Of a stretch of DNA of 64,000 bases, positions 3,208-62,358 are shown piece by piece. Position 1 is the first letter of the stretch; each line of letters starts with the position of its first letter. The notes beneath the pieces are model-generated. The model made no database searches. It worked only from the letters and a program-made list of their open reading frames with translations, and was not told the DNA's origin. Both the position numbers and the translations under genes were made by a program. Origin of the DNA: an uncultured Alphaproteobacteria bacterium (GTDB taxonomy: Bacteria > Pseudomonadota > Alphaproteobacteria > Rs-D84); the NCBI GenBank assembly GCA_905233975.1, contig CAJOGD010000001.1, positions 86,263-150,262 of the forward strand. The letters are read 5' to 3'.

Positions 3208-3302
3208 ATAGTGTTAGTGCAAGTGGTTAGTGTAAGTGCGGGCGCGTTGCGCCCGTTTGTGTTCCCGACCCACTAACCACTAATCACTAACACTTACACT
3301 AA
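3208..3302. repeat. MITE-like palindromic repeat, copy R1. Arms built from AGTGTTAGTG / CACTAACACT units around a GC hairpin CGGGCGCGTTGCGCCCG.
   Basis: Left arm tagtgttagtgcaagtggttagtgtaagtg (3208-3238) is the reverse complement of right arm cactaaccactaatcactaacacttacact (3271-3300). Same family recurs at 4768, 22507, 51768 and 62321. Confidence 0.8.
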
Positions 3303-4366
3303 TTCTGATTCTGTGGGATATAGACGTTTTCGTTATATGTTGTTTCTGTCCAATCTTCTTCAAGCGGTGTGGCCAGTAGGTATATTACGATTACAGGTGT
3401 GCCTGCTGCGTATTGTGCGGCAAGATATTGTTTCCAATCTTCAACACTTGTGCAATCGTTGTATTTAAAAGAAAAAACACCGGATGTAGTACCTGTTGCA
3501 TAAGTTTGTTTTACGCTTCCGTCTGGCATATTAGCATTTGACGCGTCAGACCCAACGAAAAGATTTGACAACGCTGGTTTCGGCGGGTTACAAGACAACA
3601 CGTCGGCAAAACTAGCATAAAATACATTGTAATTGTTAATTTTTGTCCAGTTTTCCGTTCCATCAAGTACTTTTACACCAACGCGTCTTGTGATTTTGTG
3701 TGTGGTGGCGTCGAAAGAATCGGCATAGTCACCGACTTTGCGTAATACCATATCGCCCTGGCGATAGAAAACGGGATAAATCGGATTCGTTGGCGTTGGT
3801 GTGCCGTTTTGGGTGGCGGTACCAGTTGCCGAAACGTATTCTGTATTGTTATGTATCGTATAAAGCCAACAAAGTCCGGACACCGGATCGCGGTTTTCGG
3901 AACAAACGAATTCACTATCAAGTCCGTTTTTAAGTGCCGCATTAAATGTTTTTGCGTCGATTAAATTATCAGATTGTTCCGCATACGCGCCGGTTGCTTG
4001 GTAAATTCCCTTTTGTCCGATTTGTCCGGCCGTTCCGGTATATGTGACCGCGGTGTGATCGTTAAACGGGTCTATGTCGTCCTGTTTTTGGTTTAGTTTT
4101 GTATTTACACCACCAACCATGGGCAGTGATGTGTCGGTAGTACTGGTTCCCAAATCAGATTTGACTGCGCGTTTCTGCACCGTTCCGGCCGCGTTTGTGT
4201 ATTCCATGGCTTTGTTTTGTTCCGCGTCGAATTTGTTTTGTCGCGTATCAAGTTCATGTTCGACATATTTCAATGACGTTGCGGTTTTGCGGTCCGCCGC
4301 TTCTTCGGCAAACGCCGGCAACACCGCCGCCAACAATCCGAACATCAAAAACTTTTTCAACTGCAT
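3299..4366 (-). CDS. secreted protein, paralog family A copy 1. Sec signal peptide; Thr/Gly/Asn-rich with a variable C-terminal half.
   Basis: N-terminus MQLKKFLMFGLLAAVLPAFA-EEA is a signal peptide. About 85-90 percent identical over the first ~160 aa to ORF 37882..38988. AGGAGA SD sits 8 nt upstream. Confidence 0.7.
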   Translation of the reverse strand: MQLKKFLMFGLLAAVLPAFAEEAADRKTATSLKYVEHELDTRQNKFDAEQNKAMEYTNAAGTVQKRAVKSDLGTSTTDTSLPMVGGVNTKLNQKQDDIDPFNDHTAVTYTGTAGQIGQKGIYQATGAYAEQSDNLIDAKTFNAALKNGLDSEFVCSENRDPVSGLCWLYTIHNNTEYVSATGTATQNGTPTPTNPIYPVFYRQGDMVLRKVGDYADSFDATTHKITRRVGVKVLDGTENWTKINNYNVFYASFADVLSCNPPKPALSNLFVGSDASNANMPDGSVKQTYATGTTSGVFSFKYNDCTSVEDWKQYLAAQYAAGTPVIVIYLLATPLEEDWTETTYNENVYIPQNQN

Positions 4367-4390
4367 TTAACTCTCCTTTCTCTTTTTTTT

Positions 4391-4487
4391 CCGTCATCCC
4401 GCGCTTGACGCGGGATCTCCTCAGGCTTTCCTGAGAATTAACTCTCTGCCGGTCCAACGGGATTCCGGCTTTCGCCGGAATGACGGC
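4391..4487 (-). promoter_or_regulatory. structured 5-prime leader element of paralog-A gene. Three hairpins closed by a CCGUCAU/AUGACGG helix; riboswitch-like.
   Basis: On the gene strand, GCCGUCAU..UCCGGC-GAAA-GCCGGA..CUCAGG-AAAG-CCUGAG..UCCCGCG-UCAAG-CGCGGGA..AUGACGG lies directly upstream of the SD. The second copy at 39014..39152 has compensatory changes in the last hairpin (ACCGCC-UUUC-GGCGGU). Confidence 0.5.
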
Positions 4488-4564
4488 TCCTACCCGTCTC
4501 CGCTATCGCTCCGTCGCGGTTCGTTTATTTGCGCACAAATAAACGAAACCACCGAAAATCTTCT

Positions 4565-4722
4565 AGTGGTTGGAGGTTAACGACTATGTTCCGAGAAAAT
4601 AGTGGGCTTATTCGATATATTCACCGCCCTCCAACCACTTTTTTGGTTGGAGGTATTTTATGTCCCCGCAGACACTCGGAAGCCAAGGGTCGTTACACCC
4701 CGCCGGCGGAACACCCACCGAC
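4565..4722. promoter_or_regulatory. conserved distal leader box shared by both paralog-A loci. Perfect hairpin CCTCCAACC(N6-8)GGTTGGAGG plus a CCCCGCCGGCG(A/G)AACAC(C/T)CACCGAC box.
   Basis: Nucleotide-level conservation with 39196..39368. The small ORFs overlapping it are in different frames in the two copies, so conservation is not at the protein level. Confidence 0.4.
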
Positions 4723-4767
4723 AAATTCATTTTATCAAAAAACGTAAACAAAAAACAAGTGAAAAAA

Positions 4768-4933
4768 GTGGTTAGTGTTAGTGATTAGTAGATAGTATAC
4801 CACACCCCGGCCTGCGGCCACCCCTCTCTTCGTCGCGCCCAAGGCGCGACAGAGGGGAACTTTGGCCCGCAACAGCAAAAACGCGGGGCATTGCCCCGCG
4901 CACTAACCACTTACACTAATCACTAGCCACTAT
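4768..4933. repeat. MITE-like palindromic repeat, copy R2, with a ~110 bp GC-rich internal insertion
   Basis: Arms gtggttagtgttagtgattagtag and cactaaccacttacactaatcactagccact. Interior holds nested palindromes CCCCTCT..AGAGGGG and GCGGGGCATTGCCCCGC. Confidence 0.75.
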
Positions 4934-22508: not shown

Positions 22509-22606
22509 TGGCTAGTGGTTAGTGAATGAATTCTGTAATAATCGCGTAATTACAAACTAATTCCAGATATTACTAACCACTAACACTAATCACTAACACT
22601 TCCCAC
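22507..22606. repeat. MITE-like palindromic repeat, copy R3
   Basis: Arms agtggctagtggttagtgaatg and ctaaccactaacactaatcactaacacttcccact. Interior cgtaattacaaactaattccaga is shared with copy R4. Starts at the stop codon of the preceding gene. Confidence 0.8.
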
Positions 22607-36502: not shown

Positions 36503-37384
36503 TCAGAAACCGCGGCTCTGCACCGGCATAACCACAGGTTGCTTTTCGGGGTTCATTATAAAACTTGTGTCAAAATCAATACTGGGGTCATTAAACCCAT
36601 AGTACCACAAATGCTGGGCCCACGCCGCATAAATCGACCTTGCCGCCACAAAAGCGCTTTTAATCGCATCTTCTGATGGCAAATGTATTCGCGTTTCAAA
36701 CTTCTGCCTTTGTTCCGGCGTTACATCAACAGACGACACAAACGGCAACACTCTTTCACCTGTTTTCACTGGATTGGCCGGATCATATATATACTCTTTC
36801 TCTTTTGCATTACCTTTTTCGTCTTTCTCTTTCCAAGAAACCGATATAAAACTATGCCTTTCGCCCGAAAGTTGATTCTTTGACCGCACCAATTCACCAC
36901 CGATGTATTTTGTTGATATATTCGTGTGCTTTTGGAAATACAATTGTGCCAAAATCGCGATTTCCTTGCACGTGCAAACGCCGGCATCAACCGCCGCAGA
37001 TAAAGTTTGCGGTTTATCATAGAAACTAACACTTTCTTTCGCATTTTTGAACGCGTTTGGATACACCTTTTTAAAGACATTATTAAAAGCGTACATATGC
37101 GCCAAAAGACCTATATCAAACCCCGGCGCGGCAGTATCCGCCCATTTTTTAAAAGCATCTTTTTCTTCAAAAGCCGCCGCATTTTTCGCAACCATTTGAA
37201 AAAAATCGTTGAATTTGTTTGAATCTACCTGCACAAAAATACTAAACTTATCACCAAAGGCCGATCCCCCGATCGGCACCATATCGCCATCTTGGATATT
37301 ATCTACCCTGCAATTAACCCCATCTATTATTTCACAGTTCATTTCAAATCCTTTTTCCTTATTATACCACAGATAATATACCAA
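36503..37384 (-). CDS. hypothetical protein, possibly a Cys-His hydrolase (transglutaminase-like)
   Basis: 293 aa with GVCTCKEIA and a downstream GERHSF. No firm family assignment. Confidence 0.35.
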   Translation of the reverse strand: MVYYLWYNKEKGFEMNCEIIDGVNCRVDNIQDGDMVPIGGSAFGDKFSIFVQVDSNKFNDFFQMVAKNAAAFEEKDAFKKWADTAAPGFDIGLLAHMYAFNNVFKKVYPNAFKNAKESVSFYDKPQTLSAAVDAGVCTCKEIAILAQLYFQKHTNISTKYIGGELVRSKNQLSGERHSFISVSWKEKDEKGNAKEKEYIYDPANPVKTGERVLPFVSSVDVTPEQRQKFETRIHLPSEDAIKSAFVAARSIYAAWAQHLWYYGFNDPSIDFDTSFIMNPEKQPVVMPVQSRGF

Positions 37385-37593
37385 TCAAAGTCCAACATTT
37401 GCTCTGCCCCGGGGCCCAAACCGCGGCGAAGGGATTGTATATTCCCACTGCGCTTTGCTTGCGGGAACCCTTTCCACTCGCAACGGTTTCACTGCATTAC
37501 ACTTGTGAAACCCGCTATCGTGTCGGACCCAGGGGCCTCATCTTTCGCGACTATACCAAAATTAAAACCGGGATAAACCCGGTTTGAATTTTG

Positions 37594-37613
37594 GTAGCGG
37601 CGAAGGGATTGCT
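37594..37613. repeat. duplicated 3-prime fragment of tRNA-Met (tggtagcggcgaagggatt), about 160 bp downstream of the intact tRNA, with a terminator-like hairpin repeated next to it
   Basis: Same 20-mer as 37756..37775. Both copies are preceded by an AAACCSGRATAAAYCSGGTTTGAATTTT hairpin. Confidence 0.6.
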
Positions 37614-37755: not shown

Positions 37756-37830
37756 TGGTAGCGGCGAAGGGATTCGGACCCCTGACCAAAGGATTATGAT
37801 TCCTCTGCTCTACCACTGAGCTACGCCGCC
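37756..37830 (-). tRNA. tRNA-Met (anticodon CAT; elongator or Ile-lysidine type)
   Basis: Reverse complement GGCGGCGTAGCTCAGTGGTAGAGC..anticodon loop ATCATAA..GGTCAGGGGTCCGAATCCCTTCGCCGCTACCA. Confidence 0.8.
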
Positions 37831-37881: not shown

Positions 37882-38988
37882 TTATTGATTTTGCGGGATA
37901 TAAACGCTGTCATTATACATCGTATCCGACCAATCTTCTTCCACCGGCGTGGCGAGTGGATACCAAACCGTCACCGGTGTACCGGCGGCATACTGCGCCG
38001 CAAAGTATGATTTTAAATCGTCAATCGCGGAAGCATCGTTACTTTCCCACCTAACAGCAAAATACGCCCCACCCACCGCAATGGTACCCTGTACATTATT
38101 ATCCCAATTTGCATCGCTAGCAACACACCGCCCCCTGACAAAATGCGACGTTATCAATGGTAACAACTGGTTATATGCTGTACCAATGTTTGCCATGTTA
38201 TTAAATGCATAAGCGTTATCGATATATAGTGCGGGATACCCACCAAAACTACCAACATGCCACCATTCCGTCCCATCAAGCACCTTTACACCAACGCGTC
38301 TTGTGATTTTATGTGTCGCAGCGTCATATGAATCTTTGTATGTATCGTCGATTTTTCGCAGGATCATTTCGCCCTGCTGAAAAAATTTTGGGTAAATTGG
38401 ATTCGTTGGCGTTGGTGCCCCATCTTGGACAACGGTACCGATGGCCGAAACATATTGTTTCAGTATTCCATTATTATGAATCGAATAAACCCAACAAAGG
38501 TTTGTATCGGGTTTGAATTCGGAACATATGAATTCACTATCAAGACCATTCTTTAATGCCGCATTAAATGTCTTTGCGTCAATCAGGTTGTCGGATTGTT
38601 CCGCATACGATTCGGTTGTTTGATATATTCCTTTCTGCCCTATTCCGCCGGGTTGGCCTGTGTATGTGACCGCCGTATGATCGTTGACCGGGCCGATGTC
38701 GTCCTGTTTCTGATTTAATTTTGTATTTACGCCGCCGACCATGGGAAGTGATGTGTCGGACGTGTCACTGCCCAAATCGGATTTAACTGTGCGTTTTTGG
38801 ACGTCCCCGGCTGTATTAGTGTATTCCATGGCCTTGTTTTGTTCCGCGGTAAATTTGTTTTGGCGTGTATCCAATTCATGTTCGACGTATTTCAACGACG
38901 TTGCCGTCTTGCGATCCGCCGCTTCTTCCGCCACCGCCGGCATTATGGCCGCAATTAATCCGAACAACAAAAACTTTTTCAAAAACAT
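37882..38988 (-). CDS. secreted protein, paralog family A copy 2
   Basis: Signal peptide MFLKKFLLFGLIAAIMPAVA-EEA. Conserved N-terminal 160 aa and internal ITRRVGVKVLDGTE and PTPTNPIYP blocks shared with 3299..4366. C-terminus ends VYIPQNQ in both. Confidence 0.7.
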   Translation of the reverse strand: MFLKKFLLFGLIAAIMPAVAEEAADRKTATSLKYVEHELDTRQNKFTAEQNKAMEYTNTAGDVQKRTVKSDLGSDTSDTSLPMVGGVNTKLNQKQDDIGPVNDHTAVTYTGQPGGIGQKGIYQTTESYAEQSDNLIDAKTFNAALKNGLDSEFICSEFKPDTNLCWVYSIHNNGILKQYVSAIGTVVQDGAPTPTNPIYPKFFQQGEMILRKIDDTYKDSYDAATHKITRRVGVKVLDGTEWWHVGSFGGYPALYIDNAYAFNNMANIGTAYNQLLPLITSHFVRGRCVASDANWDNNVQGTIAVGGAYFAVRWESNDASAIDDLKSYFAAQYAAGTPVTVWYPLATPVEEDWSDTMYNDSVYIPQNQ

Positions 38989-39013
38989 TTTTCTCCCCTT
39001 TTTTCCTTTCTTC

Positions 39014-39152
39014 TCGTCATACCGCCGAAAGGCGGTATCTCCTCAGGCTTCCTGAGAACTGGCCCGCAACGGTTCCGACGGGATTCCGCTTGAAATCACC
39101 CACAAAAAACGCTGCGCGTTTTTCGCGGGGCCCGATACCGCGGAATGACGGC
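39014..39152 (-). promoter_or_regulatory. structured 5-prime leader element, copy 2 (same architecture as 4391..4487 with a larger first hairpin)
   Basis: CGUCAU..AUGACG closing helix, CUCAGG-AAG-CCUGAG hairpin, and ACCGCC-UUUC-GGCGGU hairpin covarying with copy 1. Confidence 0.5.
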
Positions 39153-39195
39153 GCTAACTACTGACCACTAACAAAAACACCACCGAAACGTTTCA

Positions 39196-39368
39196 AGTGG
39201 TTGGAGGTTCAGAACAATTTGAGTTGAAATTGTGTGCTTATTTTATCGAACAAATCCGATATTATTCGCAACCCTCCAACCAATTCTGGTTGGAGTACTT
39301 TTCACCACATAGATATGGCGCAACTCAAAAGGGTTCTGACACCCCGCCGGCGAAACACTCACCGACGC
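39196..39368. promoter_or_regulatory. conserved distal leader box, copy 2
   Basis: agtggttggagg..ccctccaacca..ggttggag hairpin and the caccccgccggcgaaacactcaccgac box. Confidence 0.4.
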
Positions 39369-39503
39369 AAATATTCTATCAAAAATCACAAATAAAACAC
39401 AAGCAATTTTTGCGCCCTATCGACACAACACATCAACATTCGGACAAAATCCCGCCCAATTACTATTTGAACATTGCCCAAAAATAGTGTATAATTATTC
39501 GTC

Positions 39504-46101: not shown

Positions 46102-47004
46102 TTATTTACCGCGACACAATCCTAACTGTTTACGAAGTCGATCGTTTTCGTCAAAAAGTTCCCCACACACATCCAACAAATCTTCATATGTTACAACCGT
46201 TGGTTCCGGTACGCGTCGCATTGCTTGTCTTTCTTTTTTCTCTGCGATTTCTTTCTGTCTGGCTTCTTCTAACCTTTGGTTCGTCTTGGCCAATAACCCC
46301 GCCGTATATTCGACCATATCCACCGGTCTTCCATTGGAATCATGATACTGCTGAGAAGATATAAAGCTATTCCTGTGGTTCAACATTTTGTCATATAAAG
46401 ATTGCAATTCGCCAACCGAAAGACGTATATCCGGCATGCCCGCTATTCTTGCATAGCAAATGAATTTTTCTTGAAATTTTGTATTATCTGCAATCTTAAA
46501 CAATAATCTTTTCTTTTTATATCCATCTGTTATACGCAAACGACCATCACTGGTCCCATACAAAAATTGCTGACAAACCCTGGCAAAATGCGTTTCATGT
46601 CCACTACGTTCAATCTGTGGAAACTTTTTCCATTCACTTAATAAATAGAATAATTTTCTCTGGCCAACCCTATCATTCGGATTATTCAATATCATTAATA
46701 TATGACGCATATCTTCGACAGCATCTGTATTACCGATGGTAATGTTATGTTCATTAACCCGAGTCTTGCCCATCAACAACGCCGTCAATATGTCATAAGA
46801 CACTTTCCCTTTGTCCAAATGCGTTATATTTTTATAAAGTTCGTCCGCAATGTTCACTTTTTTTTCACTAATATACAAATTATAAATATCCGTTGTTCCA
46901 AGATTTTTTATAAACCATTCAAACGCCATTGGGGGAATTCCCAACGCAAATGTCAACAGGTCATATAATATGGGCTTTGGATTTTTGAATTCATAACGTT
47001 CCAT
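46102..47004 (-). CDS. hypothetical protein (300 aa), AT-rich, downstream member of the pil-like operon
   Basis: No TM segment and no recognised motif. Lies 45 nt downstream of the platform gene on the same strand. Confidence 0.5.
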   Translation of the reverse strand: MERYEFKNPKPILYDLLTFALGIPPMAFEWFIKNLGTTDIYNLYISEKKVNIADELYKNITHLDKGKVSYDILTALLMGKTRVNEHNITIGNTDAVEDMRHILMILNNPNDRVGQRKLFYLLSEWKKFPQIERSGHETHFARVCQQFLYGTSDGRLRITDGYKKKRLLFKIADNTKFQEKFICYARIAGMPDIRLSVGELQSLYDKMLNHRNSFISSQQYHDSNGRPVDMVEYTAGLLAKTNQRLEEARQKEIAEKKERQAMRRVPEPTVVTYEDLLDVCGELFDENDRLRKQLGLCRGK

Positions 47005-47049
47005 GATAAAACTCCATTTGTCGTATTTGATTATATCATATTTTTTTAA

Positions 47050-48120
47050 CTATGACAAGAACGCGGTGATTTGATCTTGCATTTGAAACGTGCCCAAAAC
47101 GACCCACGCAATCACGCCCGATATTAACAATATGCCAACCGTATTTAACGCGTCCGACACAGATTCAATTCTCCTTACCGAATCTTCCAAATATTCATTT
47201 GAAATATGCGACAGGTTTTCATCAAAATCATTCATATCTGAATACACCGACAAATCGCCAATCAATTCTTGGTTTGGAAAATCCATTCCTGTATTTTGCA
47301 ATGCGTTCCCAAGGTTATCGCCGTTCGCAATATGTCGTAATGTTCGATCCAAAATATCACGCAAATATTTATTCGCATTGTCCGCAATAACACGCATCGC
47401 GTCCGGAATCGAAACGCCCGCAGAAACCATTGCGGCCAACGACATCATCCAACCAACCGACACACGAATTTTATAAATACTCCATGGTGGTAATTTATCA
47501 AAGGTCGCACGCAAACGCCCCGACCACACCGGCAAAGAAAGCCATATCAAACCTATGACAACAACCAACACAAACGCCATAAATTTCCAATACTTTCCAA
47601 CCCAACTTGACAACCATATCAATGACGACGCCCCACCCGTCCAAACCATATTATCGCCCGCAATTTCGGCCAACGGCGGAACCAGGTAAATACCAACCAT
47701 CACAATTATACCCAACACCAACACAAACAATAATAACGGATATGCAATCGCACTGAACACCGCGCGACTAATTCTTTTTGTTGCGACAACAATACGACCA
47801 ACATTTTCAAGCGCGACAATCAAACTTGACATATTACTTGACGTCAGCAGCAATGTTTCTTCGGTTGGAATCCACCCACGTGTGGCCTCGGCAAAACTTA
47901 AACCTTTTTCCAAATTTTTTTCCCATTCGCGCATGCATATTGCAAACGGTTCGTTCGGTTTTGCACCACCATGCGATTCCGTCATTTGAAGTCTGTTTAA
48001 CGCATTCACCAAAGTGAAATCGTTTTTAAGCAATGATACCAACTTGCGCCAAATTGCAATACGCTTGTCCGTACTAAATCGACAGACCATTTTTGCATAA
48101 AATATTTCAACACTTGTCAT
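47050..48120 (-). CDS. type II secretion / type IV pilus inner-membrane platform protein (GspF/PilC/PilR-like)
   Basis: 356 aa. A cytoplasmic N-domain is followed by 3 TM segments with a duplicated-domain pattern. Sits 2 nt after the ATPase gene. Confidence 0.65.
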   Translation of the reverse strand: MTSVEIFYAKMVCRFSTDKRIAIWRKLVSLLKNDFTLVNALNRLQMTESHGGAKPNEPFAICMREWEKNLEKGLSFAEATRGWIPTEETLLLTSSNMSSLIVALENVGRIVVATKRISRAVFSAIAYPLLLFVLVLGIIVMVGIYLVPPLAEIAGDNMVWTGGASSLIWLSSWVGKYWKFMAFVLVVVIGLIWLSLPVWSGRLRATFDKLPPWSIYKIRVSVGWMMSLAAMVSAGVSIPDAMRVIADNANKYLRDILDRTLRHIANGDNLGNALQNTGMDFPNQELIGDLSVYSDMNDFDENLSHISNEYLEDSVRRIESVSDALNTVGILLISGVIAWVVLGTFQMQDQITAFLS

Positions 48121-48122
48121 TT

Positions 48123-49745
48123 TTAATAAACCCCTGGCCTATCCAATAACCCGACCCAGCGTTCCAATTCATCAACACCAATGATACCTTGCAACATCAA
48201 CGAACACGCCGCTTCTTTTAGTGTGCGACCGTCCATTTCTTCCAACCAATACTTTACCGCCGCATCTGTATCCCCGGCGAGTGCAAGTTTCAAAAAATCA
48301 CTGTTTGTTATAATTATTTCGCCGGCCTTGATACGTCCCATTGTTCCCGTTCCATTACAATGTTCACAACCCTTGCCACGAACATAAACCTGATTTAAAC
48401 CCAAATCACCAAACGCATCTTTGACACGACCATATTCCGCATATTCCGTATGATTAATCAGCCGTTCCCGACAATGCGGACAAAGACGTTTAAACAAACG
48501 CATGGAAACAAGTCCGCGCATCATCGTTTCTTCTTTTAACTTAAACGCTTCGACCCCCATATCAAGCAATCGCACCAACGCCGCCATCGCAGAATTCGCA
48601 TGCAACGTCGTCCAAACATTATGCCCCGACAACGCACCTTTGACCGTAAGTTGCGCGGCGGCCAGTGTTCGAATTTCCCCGACCATCAATGTGTCGGGGT
48701 CACTGCGTAATGCGGCGGCCAACGCTTCGGTGTATTCGTTTTCACGTTGTTCTTCGTTGGCGGTATTTATAACCGGAATTTGATGTGCACCAAAAATTTT
48801 CTGTTCCACCGGATCTTCAACCGTAATAAGGTTTATTTCATAATGATGTTCTTTTAACATCAAAACCATATTACGAACAAGTGTTGTTGATTTACCGGAA
48901 CTTGTCGGTCCCGCAACCACAACCAATCCCGTCGGGAAAGAACGCAGCCGATGCAATAATTTTTGTTCGTATTTTCCAAATTCTTGTTCGGTTGTAATGC
49001 TTTCAGACGGATTATCATACAACAATCGCATAACAACATACCGCGAACCGAACGCAACCGGATTAAATTGCATACGAATACTTAACACACCTTGGGGCAA
49101 ATACAAATCCTTGGTCCCGCGCAACGGTGTTCGCCCATCTTTTTGTGCCGATTGATATTCGTTTTGCGCATAGTTTGAATTAGAAATATCGGCGGACGCA
49201 AACGCGGCACGAACAAAAGATTCGCCCCACCCCGAATTAAATTCCAACACCGGTTGCATACTGCCATCTATACGAAAATAAATTGTTGTTTGGTCTGCAA
49301 CCTCTATATGAATATCAGAAACCTTTTGTGCGGCGGCCTTGGCCACAATATCGATAAAATCTTTTTGCATTTGGTTGTTGTAATCAACGCGCGCACGCGC
49401 ACCACCAACCTTGTTTTCTTGATGTTTGTATATCGCTGATAACAACCCCAGGTCCGAATAAAACGGCGCCAATATTTTACGATTTTTCTTTTGCAACAAA
49501 TCTAAAAACGCAAGGACACGACCATCATATCGATGTGTCCGCGATATAACAATTCCGCCACCCGAAAAATACGCCAATAACCCCTGGGTTTCCTTGGGCA
49601 GTTCAAATTCAGAACCGTTTGCCGTCAAAAGCCTGTTGTTTTCAGAAAAAAGATATTCAATTATATCGTTCGTATCGGACCGTTCCATTCCAATTGGTAC
49701 GGTCGGCCGTTTATCAAAAACGATATTTCCTGAAACATCTTTCAT
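48123..49745 (-). CDS. type II/IV secretion system assembly ATPase (GspE/PilB/PilQ(R64)-like)
   Basis: Walker A GPTSSGKST, Asp box, His box, and a tetracysteine CPHC..CEHC zinc motif. 540 aa. Confidence 0.8.
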   Translation of the reverse strand: MKDVSGNIVFDKRPTVPIGMERSDTNDIIEYLFSENNRLLTANGSEFELPKETQGLLAYFSGGGIVISRTHRYDGRVLAFLDLLQKKNRKILAPFYSDLGLLSAIYKHQENKVGGARARVDYNNQMQKDFIDIVAKAAAQKVSDIHIEVADQTTIYFRIDGSMQPVLEFNSGWGESFVRAAFASADISNSNYAQNEYQSAQKDGRTPLRGTKDLYLPQGVLSIRMQFNPVAFGSRYVVMRLLYDNPSESITTEQEFGKYEQKLLHRLRSFPTGLVVVAGPTSSGKSTTLVRNMVLMLKEHHYEINLITVEDPVEQKIFGAHQIPVINTANEEQRENEYTEALAAALRSDPDTLMVGEIRTLAAAQLTVKGALSGHNVWTTLHANSAMAALVRLLDMGVEAFKLKEETMMRGLVSMRLFKRLCPHCRERLINHTEYAEYGRVKDAFGDLGLNQVYVRGKGCEHCNGTGTMGRIKAGEIIITNSDFLKLALAGDTDAAVKYWLEEMDGRTLKEAACSLMLQGIIGVDELERWVGLLDRPGVY

Positions 49746-49748
49746 TTC

Positions 49749-50441
49749 TTAATTACCATTCGCAACATTTAATGTTTGTATTTCACCATCTTTGGAAAAC
49801 ACCACACCTTCGTCCAACGATATAGATTTGACCGTATATCCATCAAGTTCTTTGCCAACACTCAATTTTTTATTTTGTCCGTTGGCCAAATCTTGAACGG
49901 TTGCCTGTAATTGCGCGCCGGCACCAAACACATTAATAAGTTTGTATCTTTTTTCTATTTCTTGGGGCAAACTTGGTTGTTCCGGGGCCGCATAAACCGG
50001 CTGCGCGGGCGCATATGTTGCCGCCGGCGCCGGATTCGCCGTTTTATTAGATAACGCTTCGCGTTCGTTTTCCAAACGTTTTGCTTCGTTTTGCAAACGT
50101 GCACGTTCGGTTTCAAATTCTTGCTGTTGTTGTTCGGCACGTCCCGATAAAGTATCGATTTCCATATGCAACTTTATTTTTTCCGCGGCCAATCTATCCA
50201 AATCAAGATTTAATTGCGCGCGTTCCTTTTCCAACTGCATAAGGACTTTTTCTTGTTCCAAATCAGTAATTTGTTGAAACAGCGAACCATTAACATCGTA
50301 ATCTTCGACCGCATTTGCCGAAAAATCTTCATTCGCCGCAAATTCATCGACCCGGACATCTATCACAGAATCGACCGCATAAGACGCAGATGTTATTCCA
50401 AAAACAAAAGCGCACAACAAAAGTTTTATTTTATTTTGCAT
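49749..50441 (-). CDS. secreted coiled-coil protein with a C-terminal beta domain (PilP/GspC-like periplasmic component)
   Basis: Signal peptide MQNKIKLLLCAFVFGITSASYA, a long Gln/Glu/Arg-rich coiled-coil, and a C-terminal ~80 aa domain (KRYKLINVFGAG..). Overlaps the upstream gene by 11 nt. Confidence 0.45.
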   Translation of the reverse strand: MQNKIKLLLCAFVFGITSASYAVDSVIDVRVDEFAANEDFSANAVEDYDVNGSLFQQITDLEQEKVLMQLEKERAQLNLDLDRLAAEKIKLHMEIDTLSGRAEQQQQEFETERARLQNEAKRLENEREALSNKTANPAPAATYAPAQPVYAAPEQPSLPQEIEKRYKLINVFGAGAQLQATVQDLANGQNKKLSVGKELDGYTVKSISLDEGVVFSKDGEIQTLNVANGN

Positions 50442-51693
50442 AGATTATCACCTCATAGTTCCACATTTTTCTGGTGGCATTCCACGACACCTTGGTCATA
50501 TACACACCACCAAAATCTTCGAATATCGTCATGAATTGTTCCGGTATCAGTTTTGATTCCGCGGACACACCGACGAAAAGCACATCTTTTGAATCCCGAC
50601 CATTTGACACAACATCAACCATTGACACAACTTCTGCGTCCATGTTTATAGATTGAAAGCGACTTGTTAATTCACGCACCATCGTTTCAGTATCGCGTTC
50701 ATCATACGATTGCGATAATACGCGTTCCGGCAATTTTGCACGAACGATTACTTCGTTGTCATTCACTTCTTGGACAAACACCCCTGGCATCACATCGCCG
50801 GCTATGTTGTAAAAATCATCTAATGTTCCAAAAGACCGCTTAAACGTTGCCGTCACATGCGATTTACCACATTCAACCACAGTTTGGTTCCAACCCGCGA
50901 TTTGTTGCATCAAAAACCCAATCGCACGATAGCACAAATCCGCACGTTCTTCCGGATTTGGCAAAGAATCATACGGCATAACTATTGGTTGATATTCCGG
51001 TTCTTGCCTTATCTCAAATTCTTTATCTAATTCTTTTTCTTTCTCTTCTATCTGTCTTTTATATTCAGCCGCCAATTCAGGATTTATCTTTGCCATTTGT
51101 GGTTTCGGCGCAAAAACTTGATTTATCGGTTCACGAAAGAAATATAAAACAACGAACACAAACGCGGCGAACAAAACCGTTGACATTATACTTCTTGCGA
51201 ACAAACTTATCGGGTGCAAAACCGAATGCACACGCCCAGAAAGCAATTCCATTAAATTACGTTCAACCGCACGCGGCATTCCCCAATCCGCCGGTGCAAA
51301 CGAAGCATTCCAATCAGGAATTTCGTTCAATTCGGCATATTTTTCGCGCGCACTGTCTTCGTCATCAAATAACAAATCGTGCAAAATGACACCGTTTCGC
51401 ACCGCAACAAGAACGTATTTATTATCAACCCTAAATGCGCCCAACATCGAAGAATATCCCGGCAGCGCATTAATAATTTCAATCGCAATAGATGGCATTC
51501 CGGAACGATGCCCCTTGGCCCGCGCACCCAAACCAACCATTTCATTATATCGTATATAAAGGTTCAAATGTTTGTCTATGCCGTTTGCCAATTTTTGTGC
51601 ATACGCGCGCGTCGTAAAGCCAGACACCATCGGTTGCCATATCAATTCCGATGCATATTTTTTTCTTTTAATATGAACATATTGACCCGACAA
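50431..51693 (-). CDS. bitopic inner-membrane assembly protein (PilO(R64)/BfpC/GspL-like topology)
   Basis: 420 aa: a ~165 aa cytoplasmic domain, a single TM (SIMSTVLFAAFVFVVLYFF), and a ~235 aa periplasmic domain. First gene of the operon. Confidence 0.5.
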   Translation of the reverse strand: MSGQYVHIKRKKYASELIWQPMVSGFTTRAYAQKLANGIDKHLNLYIRYNEMVGLGARAKGHRSGMPSIAIEIINALPGYSSMLGAFRVDNKYVLVAVRNGVILHDLLFDDEDSAREKYAELNEIPDWNASFAPADWGMPRAVERNLMELLSGRVHSVLHPISLFARSIMSTVLFAAFVFVVLYFFREPINQVFAPKPQMAKINPELAAEYKRQIEEKEKELDKEFEIRQEPEYQPIVMPYDSLPNPEERADLCYRAIGFLMQQIAGWNQTVVECGKSHVTATFKRSFGTLDDFYNIAGDVMPGVFVQEVNDNEVIVRAKLPERVLSQSYDERDTETMVRELTSRFQSINMDAEVVSMVDVVSNGRDSKDVLFVGVSAESKLIPEQFMTIFEDFGGVYMTKVSWNATRKMWNYEVIIYAK

Positions 51694-51767: not shown

Positions 51768-51873
51768 AGTGTTAGTGTAAGTGATTAGTGGTTAGTCGTT
51801 TCTGGAACAAATCCGTAATTACGAATAATTCCAGACACTACTAACCACTAACACTAATCGCTTACACTAATCG
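51768..51873. repeat. MITE-like palindromic repeat, copy R4
   Basis: Arms agtgttagtgtaagtgattagtggttagt and ctactaaccactaacactaatcgcttacactaatcg. Interior cgtaattacgaataattccaga is shared with R3. Confidence 0.8.
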
Positions 51874-62320: not shown

Positions 62321-62358
62321 CACTTTCCACTAACCACTTACACTAAACACTAATTATT
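62321..62358. repeat. MITE-like repeat, solo half-copy R5 (cactttccactaaccacttacactaaacactaatta)
   Basis: A single arm of the CACTAA-unit repeat, lying between the Bro-N gene start and the ychF stop. Confidence 0.7.

Follow-up and report, generated by a model that had tools for sequence, protein, structure and literature searches.

Two paralogous genes and their parts

The window, by which we mean the whole 64-kb stretch of DNA analysed, contains two copies of one gene and no partial copies, as judged by tblastn (Table 1). Both were confirmed as intact ORFs on the minus strand at the places where the sequence-only reading had put them, and their products align from end to end with 65% identity (BLASTP, E 1e-169). 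Each begins with a typical Sec signal peptide ending in AxA followed by EE, and on reading the sequence no lipobox Cys is present in that of copy 1. The N-terminal module (N-module) that follows closes, in copy 1, with the motif EFxC..(8-12 aa)..CW.Y.IHN containing two invariant Cys. Between the copies this module is 84% identical (dN 0.11, dS 1.37), high but slightly lower than the 85-90% previously claimed for the first ~160 aa.

The earlier claim that the two proteins share the blocks ITRRVGVKVLDGTE and PTPTNPIYP as well as the C-terminal VYIPQNQ holds for both copies. The segments between these blocks had been described as unrelated, which they are not: over residues ~173-241 the copies share 69-71% identity, and over the final ~47 aa 72-74%. 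What remains of that description is one stretch of 69-80 aa, rather than several, in which the copies are at random level (23% aa identity, no detectable DNA similarity). We refer to it as the hypervariable (HV) segment and to the conserved sequences on either side as the 5' and 3' frames of a class-1 module. For the HV segment of copy 2, the top identity to any other family member was 29%, which is noise level.

Table 1. Coordinates of the two genes, their parts and their upstream elements in the window
Feature	Position	Strand	Description
Copy 1 CDS	3299..4366	-	355 aa; ORF; exact match to P0010 on a 245,047-bp contig
Copy 1 Sec signal peptide	4307..4366	-	aa 1-20, MQLKKFLMFGLLAAVLPAFA followed by EE; putative cleavage site, read from sequence
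Copy 1 N-module	3848..4306	-	aa 21-173; conserved; from alignments
Copy 1 class-1 module, 5' frame	3653..3838	-	Conserved; YVSATG..PTPTNPIYP..ITRRVGVKVLDGTE; from alignment
Copy 1 HV segment	3446..3652	-	aa 239-307; no DNA similarity to copy 2
Copy 1 class-1 module, 3' frame	3302..3445	-	Conserved, with C-terminal VYIPQNQN; helix, then QYAAGTPV.V.Y.LATP.EEDW strand (predicted structure)
Copy 1 leader RNA	4536..4728	-	Divergent type A; covariance model 13.6 bits, E 5e-5 over an 801-nt region
Copy 1 putative extended -10 element	4729..4737	-	TGATAAAAT; read from sequence
Copy 1 hairpin H1	4628..4653	-	CCTCCAACC-loop-GGTTGGAGG
Copy 1 second H1 5' arm	4537..4576	-	CCTCCAACCAC; terminator-like hairpin with U-rich tail
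Copy 1 distal 5'UTR	4371..4484	-	REP-like palindrome 4457-4484; two conserved hairpins 4392-4437; RBS AAAGGAGAG 4371-4379
Copy 2 CDS	37882..38988	-	368 aa; P0001 is the same protein started at the second Met
Copy 2 Sec signal peptide	38929..38988	-	aa 1-20; read from sequence
Copy 2 N-module	38473..38928	-	aa 21-172; conserved
Copy 2 class-1 module, 5' frame	38266..38454	-	
Copy 2 HV segment	38026..38265	-	aa 242-321
Copy 2 class-1 module, 3' frame	37885..38025	-	Conserved, with C-terminal VYIPQNQ
Copy 2 leader RNA	39167..39372	-	Type A; covariance model 30.4 bits, E 1.8e-10 over an 801-nt region
Copy 2 distal 5'UTR	38992..39166	-	Interrupted REP-like palindrome 39077-39149; two hairpins 39015-39058; RBS 38992-39000
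tRNA-Met	37756..37830	-	

Repeats had also been reported to flank both copies. They are present, but look incidental: the MITE-like element with terminal inverted repeats upstream of copy 1 (4768-4923) carries a 22-mer motif that recurs at four further sites in the window, and the extra copies of the 3' end of tRNA-Met (37597-37611 and 37423-37437) are separated from copy 2 by the tRNA itself. The inverted repeats seen upstream of copy 1 are the MITE termini. For copy 2 an invertible promoter was considered and rejected, there being no inverted repeats around its promoter region.

A structured leader RNA precedes each gene

The DNA similarity of the two copies extends ~400 nt 5' of the start codons (4367-4759 and 38989-39403), an observation that the sequence-only reading does not contain. 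Each window gene is preceded there by the same structured 5' leader of ~200 nt, with MFE z-scores of -6.7 for copy 1 and -6.2 for copy 2. In an alignment of type A leaders 8 of the 42 predicted pairs show compensatory changes, and in an independent alignment of seven sequences 26 of 53 do. The leader model found 12 more instances, each just 5' of a same-strand gene for a modular protein with a signal peptide. In the alignment of 19 leaders (A6), which was fitted to the model, 94% of positions predicted to pair are paired and 42 of the 53 pairs are compensatory; double-change cells number 210, compared with 21-49 in slid controls, in which 39-49% are paired, and none of 500 shuffles reached the observed values.

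Each of the 21 strong matches to the leader closely precedes, on the same strand, a gene for a modular protein with a signal peptide, and the leader is present at every inspected family gene with intact upstream sequence. The model also matches upstream of a short gene consisting of the N-module only (L047). Searches against Rfam 15 (4,227 families), of the window at gathering thresholds and of seven leader-bearing loci at E<=1, returned tRNAs only. The leader is a covariation-supported structured RNA that was previously unlisted.

The 5' arm of hairpin H1 is repeated near the 3' end of the leader, in a region that also holds a terminator-like hairpin and a U-rich tail, and in copy 1 the alternative pairing of this repeated arm with the 3' arm of H1 is predicted at -22.6 vs -19.5 kcal/mol. 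The alternative duplex is the more stable one in all five leaders compared, and it overlaps the terminator-like stem in type A only, not in type B. In type A leaders that stem is weak, and the consensus scan picked up neither the stem nor the putative -10 element of copy 1. Further downstream, the distal hairpin GAUCCCGCG/CGCGGGAU of copy 1 corresponds to GAUACCGCC/GGCGGUAU in copy 2, again with compensatory changes.

Two other readings of the leader were rejected. A leader peptide does not fit, as the sole ORF in the copy 1 leader begins inside the putative -10 box and its ATG is missing in copy 2. Nor does the leader appear to be a decayed version of the short N-module-only gene that lies upstream in another lineage, since tblastn detected nothing resembling the N-module in the leaders of the window and the RNA model places a leader 5' of that short gene too.

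A large family in reduced genomes

Searches with the window proteins returned 352 homologues at E<=1e-3. Many of them match aa 1-172 only, with 80-91% identity, and continue into different C-termini, giving total lengths of 308-570 aa. All members inspected share the two-Cys loop motif and, across all family classes inspected, the C-terminal end [VIL]Y[IV]PQNQ, and a hydrophobic signal peptide ending in AxA is found in both copies and in every aligned homologue that is complete at its N-terminus. None of the family genes inspected is truncated, and start codon, RBS and signal peptide are present throughout. Among the matches listed, at least 10 paralogs lie on the window's own 245-kb contig, sharing their longest contig (245,047 bp) with the housekeeping proteins of the window. 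The genes stand singly and dispersed among housekeeping genes, with neighbours such as gyrB, UDG, PagL, FtsK, SecDF, PNPase and LpxD. Contig ends account for most of the family's matches in the MAG assemblies that were searched, which suggests that the family is probably undercounted and that it fragments the assembly of such genomes.

The window comes from the MAG of an uncultured alphaproteobacterium sampled from animal gut or rumen, which is placed in Rs-D84 by way of its rumen and gut relatives. Among these is Candidatus Enterousia, a member of that order; such bacteria are uncultured, with reduced genomes of under ~1 Mb and a presumed dependence on a partner, off whose cells they would live (PMC12306168).

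Pfam, NCBIfam and PDB sequence searches with both proteins and with the family profiles gave nothing meaningful, the sole hit, to a PPR repeat at E 0.08, being spurious. Pfam scans of 10 proteins with other C-terminal modules and 10 distant module-bearing proteins gave sub-threshold matches only, except for DUF3592, which was above its cut-off in one of these 20 proteins. Cluster look-ups returned no informative names, and we found no account of the family or of the leader RNA in the literature on Enterousia and Rs-D84. The exact copy 2 peptides had no match in a scan of genome contigs; the genome of the window is not a GTDB species representative. The two genes belong to a large, lineage-restricted and previously undescribed family of Sec-exported modular proteins.

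Segments of the same gene have different histories

Among 61 members with a class-1 module, median identity is 80% in the 5' frame, 20% in the HV segment and 79% in the 3' frame. Synonymous sites between copy 1 and copy 2 are saturated throughout (dS 1.1-1.4), so that no recent exchange between the two is visible. The earlier proposal that such genes diversify by recombination is not supported by the window pair compared with each other, but is supported by discordant segment histories in the family.

One alternative is that these are old paralogs that diverged by point mutations and indels under uneven constraint, with a frame kept for its structural role, a drifting loop and no cassette exchange, at least for the window pair. 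The saturation of that pair and the dN/dS of ~0.08 in its N-module speak for this account, and it is also favoured by the central [CS][ST]HF-like anchor motif that most members keep in the HV segment and by the AF2 prediction, in which this segment forms a long loop flanked by conserved strands. However, in paralogs of lineage C, flanks with a dS of only 0.36-0.57 enclose HV segments at random level, and other pairs show the reverse: between P0003 and P0002 the frame and HV segment have a dS of 0-0.04, yet the N-modules are saturated (dS 2.29). Copy 2 itself is part of this pattern when compared with P0003, a third paralog of the same genome and the only one against which mosaicism involving copy 2 is visible: the 5' frame (90% DNA identity, dS 0.42) is much younger than the N-module (dS 1.05).

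The groupings of the segments are likewise incongruent. N-modules group by lineage, with 79-88% identity within and 58-65% between lineages, and HV types are common to different lineages. P0015 and P0040 have a DNA identity of 45-65% in the N-module and of 90-100% over the HV segment. HV identity and N-module identity are uncorrelated (rho -0.02). This disagreement, together with the jumps in dS along the genes, supports recombination, and we regard a history of divergence without exchange as unlikely. The discordant histories call for homologous recombination or gene conversion whose breakpoints fall within the conserved frames. The dS and DNA-identity profiles of the mosaics are compatible with either conversion or exchange, though they come partly from short contigs, and two of the clearest mosaics, on metagenome contigs of 1.2 and 2.4 kb, may be assembly chimeras. 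A positional orthologue of copy 2 with another HV segment was sought in a related strain, and the candidates, P0004 and P0002, proved to occupy different loci or a short contig. A diversity-generating retroelement does not fit as the source of variation, as HV segments vary in length from 58 to 96 aa across the family and are unalignable, and no second copy of them that might act as a template was detected elsewhere in the window (tblastn) or at the other locus (blastn).

Exchange between segments might also be programmed, as in antigenic variation of the pilE/pilS, Msp2/P44 or VlsE type, where one expression site is rewritten from silent partial cassettes. The order of conserved flank, central HV segment and conserved flank, the conversion-like evidence and the host-associated life of a bacterium with a reduced genome would all suit such a system. 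The silent cassettes that it calls for, and that the sequence-only reading had proposed to look for, were not found: tblastn detected no partial or promoterless copy in the 64-kb window. The copies inspected are complete and dispersed rather than arrayed, and the window pair lacks any sign of recent conversion, which makes programmed variation of this type very unlikely.

The class-1 module has a predicted fold related to phage fibres

A profile of the class-1 module matched 7,252 representative proteins of up to 4,901 aa, in which it occurs in up to eight tandem copies and together with Flg_new repeats. With a deeper alignment the isolated module was confidently predicted by AF2 (pLDDT 83.5, pTM 0.81). 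The full-length model was poor (pLDDT 58.5), and a Foldseek search of the PDB with it was discarded as meaningless. The N-module is predicted poorly (pLDDT ~30-55) and has no detectable relatives beyond the family, so that an anchor role for it is a guess.

Foldseek of the class-1 module against BFVD gave 21 matches at E<=1e-3 (best 4.6e-10, TM 0.5-0.66), all to predicted structures, among them tail fibre, virion structural, BppU and distal tail proteins. Weak but recurrent PHROG matches pointed to tail fibre and virion structural families. In the predicted structures, the class-1 frame is beta-rich and related at the level of the fold to phage fibre modules. The earlier likening of the two proteins to phage tail fibres is thus apt for the fold of the C-terminal module, but not for the genes as a whole, with their signal peptides and housekeeping surroundings and with phage genomes nearly empty of matches.

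Were the genes structural genes of a prophage, a tailocin or a particle resembling a gene-transfer agent, their products would be true tail fibres. Besides the similarity of the fold and the PHROG matches, the short repeated motifs of the N-module (V..L..KQD) look fibre-like by eye. Phage structural proteins would not be expected to carry Sec signal peptides, to be encoded singly between housekeeping genes without adjacent phage genes, to exist in dozens of copies per small genome or to have a regulatory leader of cellular type at each gene, and a tblastn search of 50,697 phage genomes gave one weak match only; we consider this origin highly improbable. Least credible of all is a family of polymorphic toxins or effectors, with an N-terminal trafficking domain, variable toxin C-termini and immunity genes: conserved N-termini with swapped C-termini and many members in one genome recall such systems, but the C-terminal modules are beta-rich, of a binding type and also found in tandem in giant repeat proteins, one C-terminal tail is common to all members, no toxin Pfam matches were obtained, and a small 3' gene is not consistently present, copy 1 being followed by a convergent ORF that we take, from its translation, to be rmuC-like and copy 2 by tRNA-Met.

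A proposed repertoire of exported binding proteins under a common leader

We think it probable that the two genes are members of a large family of exported modular proteins with a swappable segment related to phage fibres and a shared attenuator-like leader, and that the proteins bind ligands. Each gene is a self-contained unit. It starts with a putative promoter and a leader whose 3' end forms a terminator-like hairpin, and continues with an RBS and sequences for a signal peptide and for an N-module of ~150 aa that the two-Cys loop closes; next come interchangeable middle modules, either one or two, and a flexible YIPQNQ tail. Where the middle module is of class 1, its frame holds the hypervariable insert of 58-96 aa. 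The N-module may act as a shared stalk or anchor by which every paralog attaches to one envelope partner. A Sec signal by itself carries a protein only to the periplasm, and the invariant C-terminal peptide hints at a sorting or anchoring step. The variable modules would then serve as putative ligand- or cell-binding heads, providing a repertoire of attachment specificities. The leader could place the whole repertoire under one signal by conditional transcription attenuation, either riboswitch-like or factor-dependent, which would use the alternative pairing of the repeated arm.

A more specific version can be put forward only tentatively: the leader would represent a new class of riboswitch or factor-binding attenuator, giving control of dozens of genes by one signal or a stochastic choice of one gene at a time, and the proteins would be adhesins built from phage receptor-binding modules on a common N-module stalk, with YIPQNQ as a sorting peptide, reshuffled between active paralogs. 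If true, this would be a bacterial counterpart of the variant surface gene families of eukaryotic parasites, and an obligate, genome-reduced gut symbiont could switch or broaden the partner cells that it attaches to. The family may fill several percent of such a genome and is a strong candidate for the partner-recognition interface. Experimental handles are available in the confidently folding class-1 module and in the leader RNA, which is open to direct ligand-binding assays.

Comparison with known systems

The leader resembles those of riboswitches and attenuators in being a multi-helix 5'UTR element of ~200-350 nt with strong covariation on the coding strand directly 5' of an ORF, in combining a U-run hairpin at its 3' end with a repeated arm through which alternative pairing can occur, and in recurring before many functionally related genes. 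Unlike the known riboswitch classes, it matches none of the Rfam 15 families (4,227). Riboswitches for c-di-GMP are known to precede adhesin and pilus genes.

Among phage proteins, the predicted fold of the class-1 module matches tail-fibre and receptor-binding modules such as phrog_6782 (tail fiber), phrog_23208 (virion structural protein), the virion structure protein of Clostridium phage CPS2 and BppU-domain proteins. With phage fibres the family also appears to share a design in which the attachment end is constant, the distal binding end varies and modules are exchanged by recombination, whereas the window proteins have a secretion signal and are encoded outside phage structural gene clusters. 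Large bacterial adhesins with Flg_new or Listeria-Bacteroides repeats (PF09479, TIGR02543) are a second point of reference, as the class-1 module occurs fused to Flg_new, and a Ca. Enterousia protein of more than 1,682 aa combines class-1 and class-2 modules with TV.Y..NGG-type repeats that resemble the Flg_new class by eye. The window proteins differ from these adhesins in their small size (355-368 aa), in having no Flg_new repeats and in possessing the family-specific N-module together with the YIPQNQ tail.

The variable surface families Msp2/P44 of Anaplasma, OMP-1/P28 of Ehrlichia, Vsp/Vlp of Mycoplasma and Vls of Borrelia are found in bacteria that live with a host and have small genomes. 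Like them, the family described here has numerous paralogs in a reduced genome, a central hypervariable segment between conserved flanks, and segments uncoupled by recombination. The present family differs in that its proteins are neither beta-barrel porins nor lipoproteins and match no Pfam entry, and in that its copies, with no layout of expression site and silent cassettes in the 64-kb window, look independently expressible and appear to swap whole modules, not just a central patch.

A single hypervariable segment in two paralogous genes

Both ORFs reported by the sequence-only reading are present on the minus strand, and each of the shared motifs it named occurs in both copies. The two proteins align end to end (65% identity, E 1e-169). 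Identity over the signal peptide and the first ~160 aa, put at 85-90% in that reading, is high, although we measured 84% over the first 160 aa. Codon-level comparison gave 84% amino acid identity for the conserved N-terminal part, the N-module (aa 22-172; dN 0.11, dS 1.37), 69% for aa 173-241, 23% for aa 242-326 and 72% for the last ~42 aa, and revealed no recent exchange between the two copies. At the nucleotide level we observed two colinear BLASTN blocks (3653-4759 / 38266-39403 and 3306-3444 / 37886-38024) with no BLASTN similarity between them, indicating one hypervariable (HV) segment per gene, located in this gap between conserved 5' and 3' frames. The claim of unrelated intervening segments thus holds for this segment but was overstated in the plural, given the identity of aa 173-241. 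The first block includes ~400 nt 5' of both ATGs, missed in the earlier reading. No third or partial copy was detected by tblastn within the 64-kb window.

A widespread modular family

Searching 5.8 billion proteins returned 352 homologues; Pfam, NCBIfam and PDB gave no sequence matches. Approximately half of the top matches are full-length relatives (50-72% identity), and the others have only aa 1-~172 in common (80-91% identity), beyond which their C-terminal parts differ and bring the proteins to 308-570 aa in total. The sequences that we read follow a common plan: after the signal peptide, an N-module ending in EFxC-(8-12 aa)-CW.Y.IHN leads into one or two middle modules, and [VIL]Y[IV]PQNQ forms the invariant C-terminus. 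The middle modules fall into three or more classes: class 1, found in both window copies (PTPTNPIYP..ITRRVGVKVLDGTE..[HV]..QYAAGTPVTVYYPLATPVEEDW), class 2 (LPxGYTxLEYIESxGTQYIDTG ... GMYDTVSGxFFxNxGxGxFxAGP) and class 3 (NLFD..PNTxYTxS..xExGSTATPYxPY). Irrespective of middle module, all family members that we inspected terminate in the peptide [VIL]Y[IV]PQNQ(N/Q), a stretch with predicted disorder. Distant relatives lacking the N-module do not have this peptide, which may represent a sorting, anchoring or recognition tag.

The window is part of a 245,047-bp contig of an Alphaproteobacteria MAG. Among the 120 homologues listed, at least 10 share this value as the length of their longest contig and 13 share another, 271,882 bp, suggesting that paralogs occur about every 20-30 kb. 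The genes occur individually among housekeeping genes, not in arrays. Related loci (L-numbers) were found in rumen and gut MAGs (RUG774, RUG13256, RGIG8185, Candidatus Enterousia); Enterousia and the order Rs-D84 have genomes below ~1 Mb and a probable partner dependence (PMC12306168). The RUG774-like rumen lineage has a short paralog consisting of the N-module alone (~172-185 aa with ~34% identity, ending in ..VYTEHQ), placed immediately upstream of a full-length family gene (Table; also L043, L044, L048, L051, L053), and in L047 the leader RNA described below sits ahead of the pair. When MAG assemblies were searched, the majority of family matches started no more than a few bases into a contig (L002-L017, L022, L025, L038, L039, L049 and others), indicating that the conserved N-module or leader is where assemblies break. 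Therefore, the family is probably undercounted, and probably limits MAG contiguity.

Likeness of the class-1 module to phage fibres

A class-1 profile matched 7,252 representative proteins (E<=1e-3) of up to 4,901 aa, in which the module is single or in up to 8 tandem copies and is sometimes fused to Flg_new repeats (PF09479). In related genomes, a 447-aa protein (L020) combines class 3 and class 1 modules, and a protein of >1,682 aa from a Ca. Enterousia MAG (L026, 11-5059) carries one class-2 and one class-1 module, showing that modules of the family are also used in giant proteins. By eye, the latter has many TV.Y..NGG-type, Listeria-Bacteroides-like repeats.

AF2 modelled the full-length protein poorly (pLDDT 58.5); the class-1 module alone, with a 125-sequence alignment, reached pLDDT 83.5 and pTM 0.81, with beta strands, one long helix, a terminal long strand and disordered last residues. 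Structure prediction, proposed in the sequence-only reading for the variable domains, yields a confident fold for the module, in which HV is largely a long loop region modelled with lower confidence. Against predicted viral structures, Foldseek gave 21 matches at E<=1e-3 (best 4.6e-10, TM 0.5-0.66), annotated as tail fibre, virion structure protein (Clostridium phage CPS2), BppU-domain, distal tail and collagen-repeat proteins; PHROG matches were consistent with this but weak, and tblastn against 50,697 phage genomes gave a single weak match. As judged from its predicted structure, the class-1 module is related to phage fibre or receptor-binding modules at the fold level; the window genes themselves are not phage genes.

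Recombination within conserved frames

Across 61 class-1 members, median pairwise identity is 63% for the N-module, 80% for the 5' frame, 20% for HV and 79% for the 3' frame, and HV identity is uncorrelated with N-module identity (rho -0.02). N-modules cluster by lineage (79-88% identity within, 58-65% between) and HV types cut across these clusters: against a background of 21 +/- 7%, the HVs of homologues P0006 and P0037 are 56% identical, those of P0007 and P0061 41% and those of P0015 and P0040 90%. In the last pair, DNA identity is 45-65% in the N-module, 90-100% in HV and 61-76% at the 3' end. A third paralog of the window genome, P0003, differs from P0002 by an N-module dS of 2.29, with 97% nucleotide identity and dS 0-0.04 over 5' frame and HV. 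Copy 2 and P0003 have a 5' frame dS of 0.42 (90% nucleotide identity), an N-module dS of 1.05 and random-level HVs, and lineage C paralogs have flanks of dS 0.36-0.57 around random-level HVs. Two of the clearest mosaics involve contigs of 1.2 and 2.4 kb, where assembly chimeras are possible. On long contigs, a RUG774 gene (L003, nt 541-693) and a Ca. Enterousia gene with 34% amino acid identity to copy 2 (L018, nt 418-570) share 153 nt of class-1 5' frame at 93% identity, suggesting exchange between genera.

Simple divergence, the alternative that the sequence-only reading had set against its own proposal, is ruled out at the family level: point divergence alone cannot give such discontinuities, which call for recombination or gene conversion whose breakpoints lie within the conserved frames and which either homogenises the flanks or swaps the variable parts. 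The silent cassettes for which that reading proposed a search were not found, as tblastn in the window revealed nothing resembling such an organisation. Nothing resembling a DGR-like pattern was seen at the window genes, nor an invertible promoter among inverted repeats sought at the copy 2 promoter region.

The repeats reported to flank both copies exist, but we saw no link of either to the family. The MITE-like element upstream of copy 1 (terminal inverted repeats GTGGTTAGTGTTAGTGATTAGT) is a general small repeat of the genome, since its 22-mer motif recurs at four window sites; the same 22-mer family also occurs inside the leaders of L032 and L033. Downstream of copy 2, the additional tRNA 3' ends (spacings of 164 and 174 nt) resemble att-like scars left by integration events at this tRNA; they are on its far side relative to copy 2, next to a 293-aa ORF that has no Pfam match.

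A structured leader RNA

The regions upstream of copies 1 and 2 are strongly structured (MFE z-scores -6.7 and -6.2), and other paralogs have a related leader, type B. RNAalifold on seven type B leaders predicted a structure of 8 helices; 26 of its 53 pairs are compensatory, and 91% of cells are paired versus 39-51% with slid partners. The resulting covariance model found 12 new instances outside the training set (10 at E<=1e-5), each just 5' of a gene on the same strand encoding a signal-peptide protein of the same modules, including distant loci without N-module or YIPQNQ tail. In an alignment of 19 leaders, fitted to the covariance model and thereby favouring structure, 94% of cells are paired, 42 of 53 pairs are compensatory and 210 cells show double changes (21-49 in slid controls), values reached by 0 of 500 shuffles. 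The leader spans ~200-350 nt and matches no Rfam 15 family; we regard it as a candidate new cis-regulatory RNA class.

The type A leaders of the window lack one domain; four sequences gave 42 predicted pairs, 8 compensatory, including a long-range helix of GGGGUGUxxxxA with UxxxxAACCUCC. A hairpin with a U-run closes the leader, and beside it stands a second copy of an internal hairpin's 5' arm (CCUCCAACC in type A, ACCCCG(A) in type B), which changes jointly with that internal hairpin between types. In all five leaders compared, pairing as the alternative duplex is more stable than pairing as the hairpin duplex; this alternative overlaps the terminator-like stem in type A but not in type B. 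The leader might act by conditional attenuation. Between leader and RBS, the window copies have further palindromic elements along with two small hairpins whose differences are compensatory, and in copy 2, L030 and L032 the palindrome loop holds a nested ~60-nt insertion with its own terminator-like hairpin.

Features of the window and of related loci (L-numbers)
Feature	Coordinates	Strand	Remark
Copy 1 ORF	3299..4366	-	355 aa
Copy 1 C-terminal peptide	3302-3322
Copy 1 HV segment	3446-3652	-	in BLASTN gap
Copy 1 leader, type A	4536-4728	-	covariance model, filters off, 13.6 bits
Copy 2 ORF	37882..38988	-	368 aa
Copy 2 C-terminal peptide	37885-37905
Copy 2 HV segment	38026-38265	-	in BLASTN gap
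Copy 2 leader, type A	39167-39372	-	covariance model, filters off, 30.4 bits
REP-like palindrome	4457-4484; 39077-39149		GTCATTCCGGC-GAAA-GCCGGAATCCCGT, between leader and RBS
MITE-like element	4768-4923		upstream of copy 1
MITE motif repeats	22572-22606; 51840-51861; 62329-62350		intergenic; motif at 22572, 22585, 51840, 62329
tRNA-Met(CAT)	37756-37830		downstream of copy 2, followed by its terminator
tRNA 3'-end direct copies	37597-37611; 37423-37437		first with duplicated terminator hairpin
293-aa ORF	36503-37384
T2SS/type IVb-pilus-like cluster	46102-51693	-	T2SSE, T2SSF, PAP_PilO, unannotated ORFs
Short N-module-only paralog	L036:3019-3573; L047:1855-2373
Other leader instances	L030:9812-10053; L032:9548-9792; L068:2569-2796; L070:2723-2971; L028:2742-2998; L047:1466-1718; L023:3274-3604; others		ahead of family genes and distant genes of the same modules

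Discussion

The two genes belong to a large modular signal-peptide family with conserved N-terminal and extreme C-terminal parts and interchangeable modules of phage-fibre type, marked by recombinational mosaicism and a shared structured leader. The earlier observation was essentially correct and its interpretation partly so; the main additions are the leader RNA and the family-level picture.

The N-module could serve all members as a stalk or anchor: its uniformity across a lineage would suit docking to a single partner, and its pair of invariant Cys is compatible with an oxidising environment outside the cytoplasm. The middle modules would act as binding heads, the disordered YIPQNQ peptide would be recognised by a sorting, secretion or anchoring factor, and the leader would co-regulate the whole repertoire. 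The window also holds a T2SS/type IVb-pilus-like cluster, whose PAP_PilO-like protein is of the R64 thin-pilus accessory type; it is conceivable that this cluster is the export route of the family.

The family, its N-module, C-terminal tag and leader RNA are absent from all libraries searched and are not described in the literature searched. The kinds of system to which they belong, i.e. variable modular surface or binding families, recombination-driven mosaicism and cis-regulatory leader RNAs, are already known.
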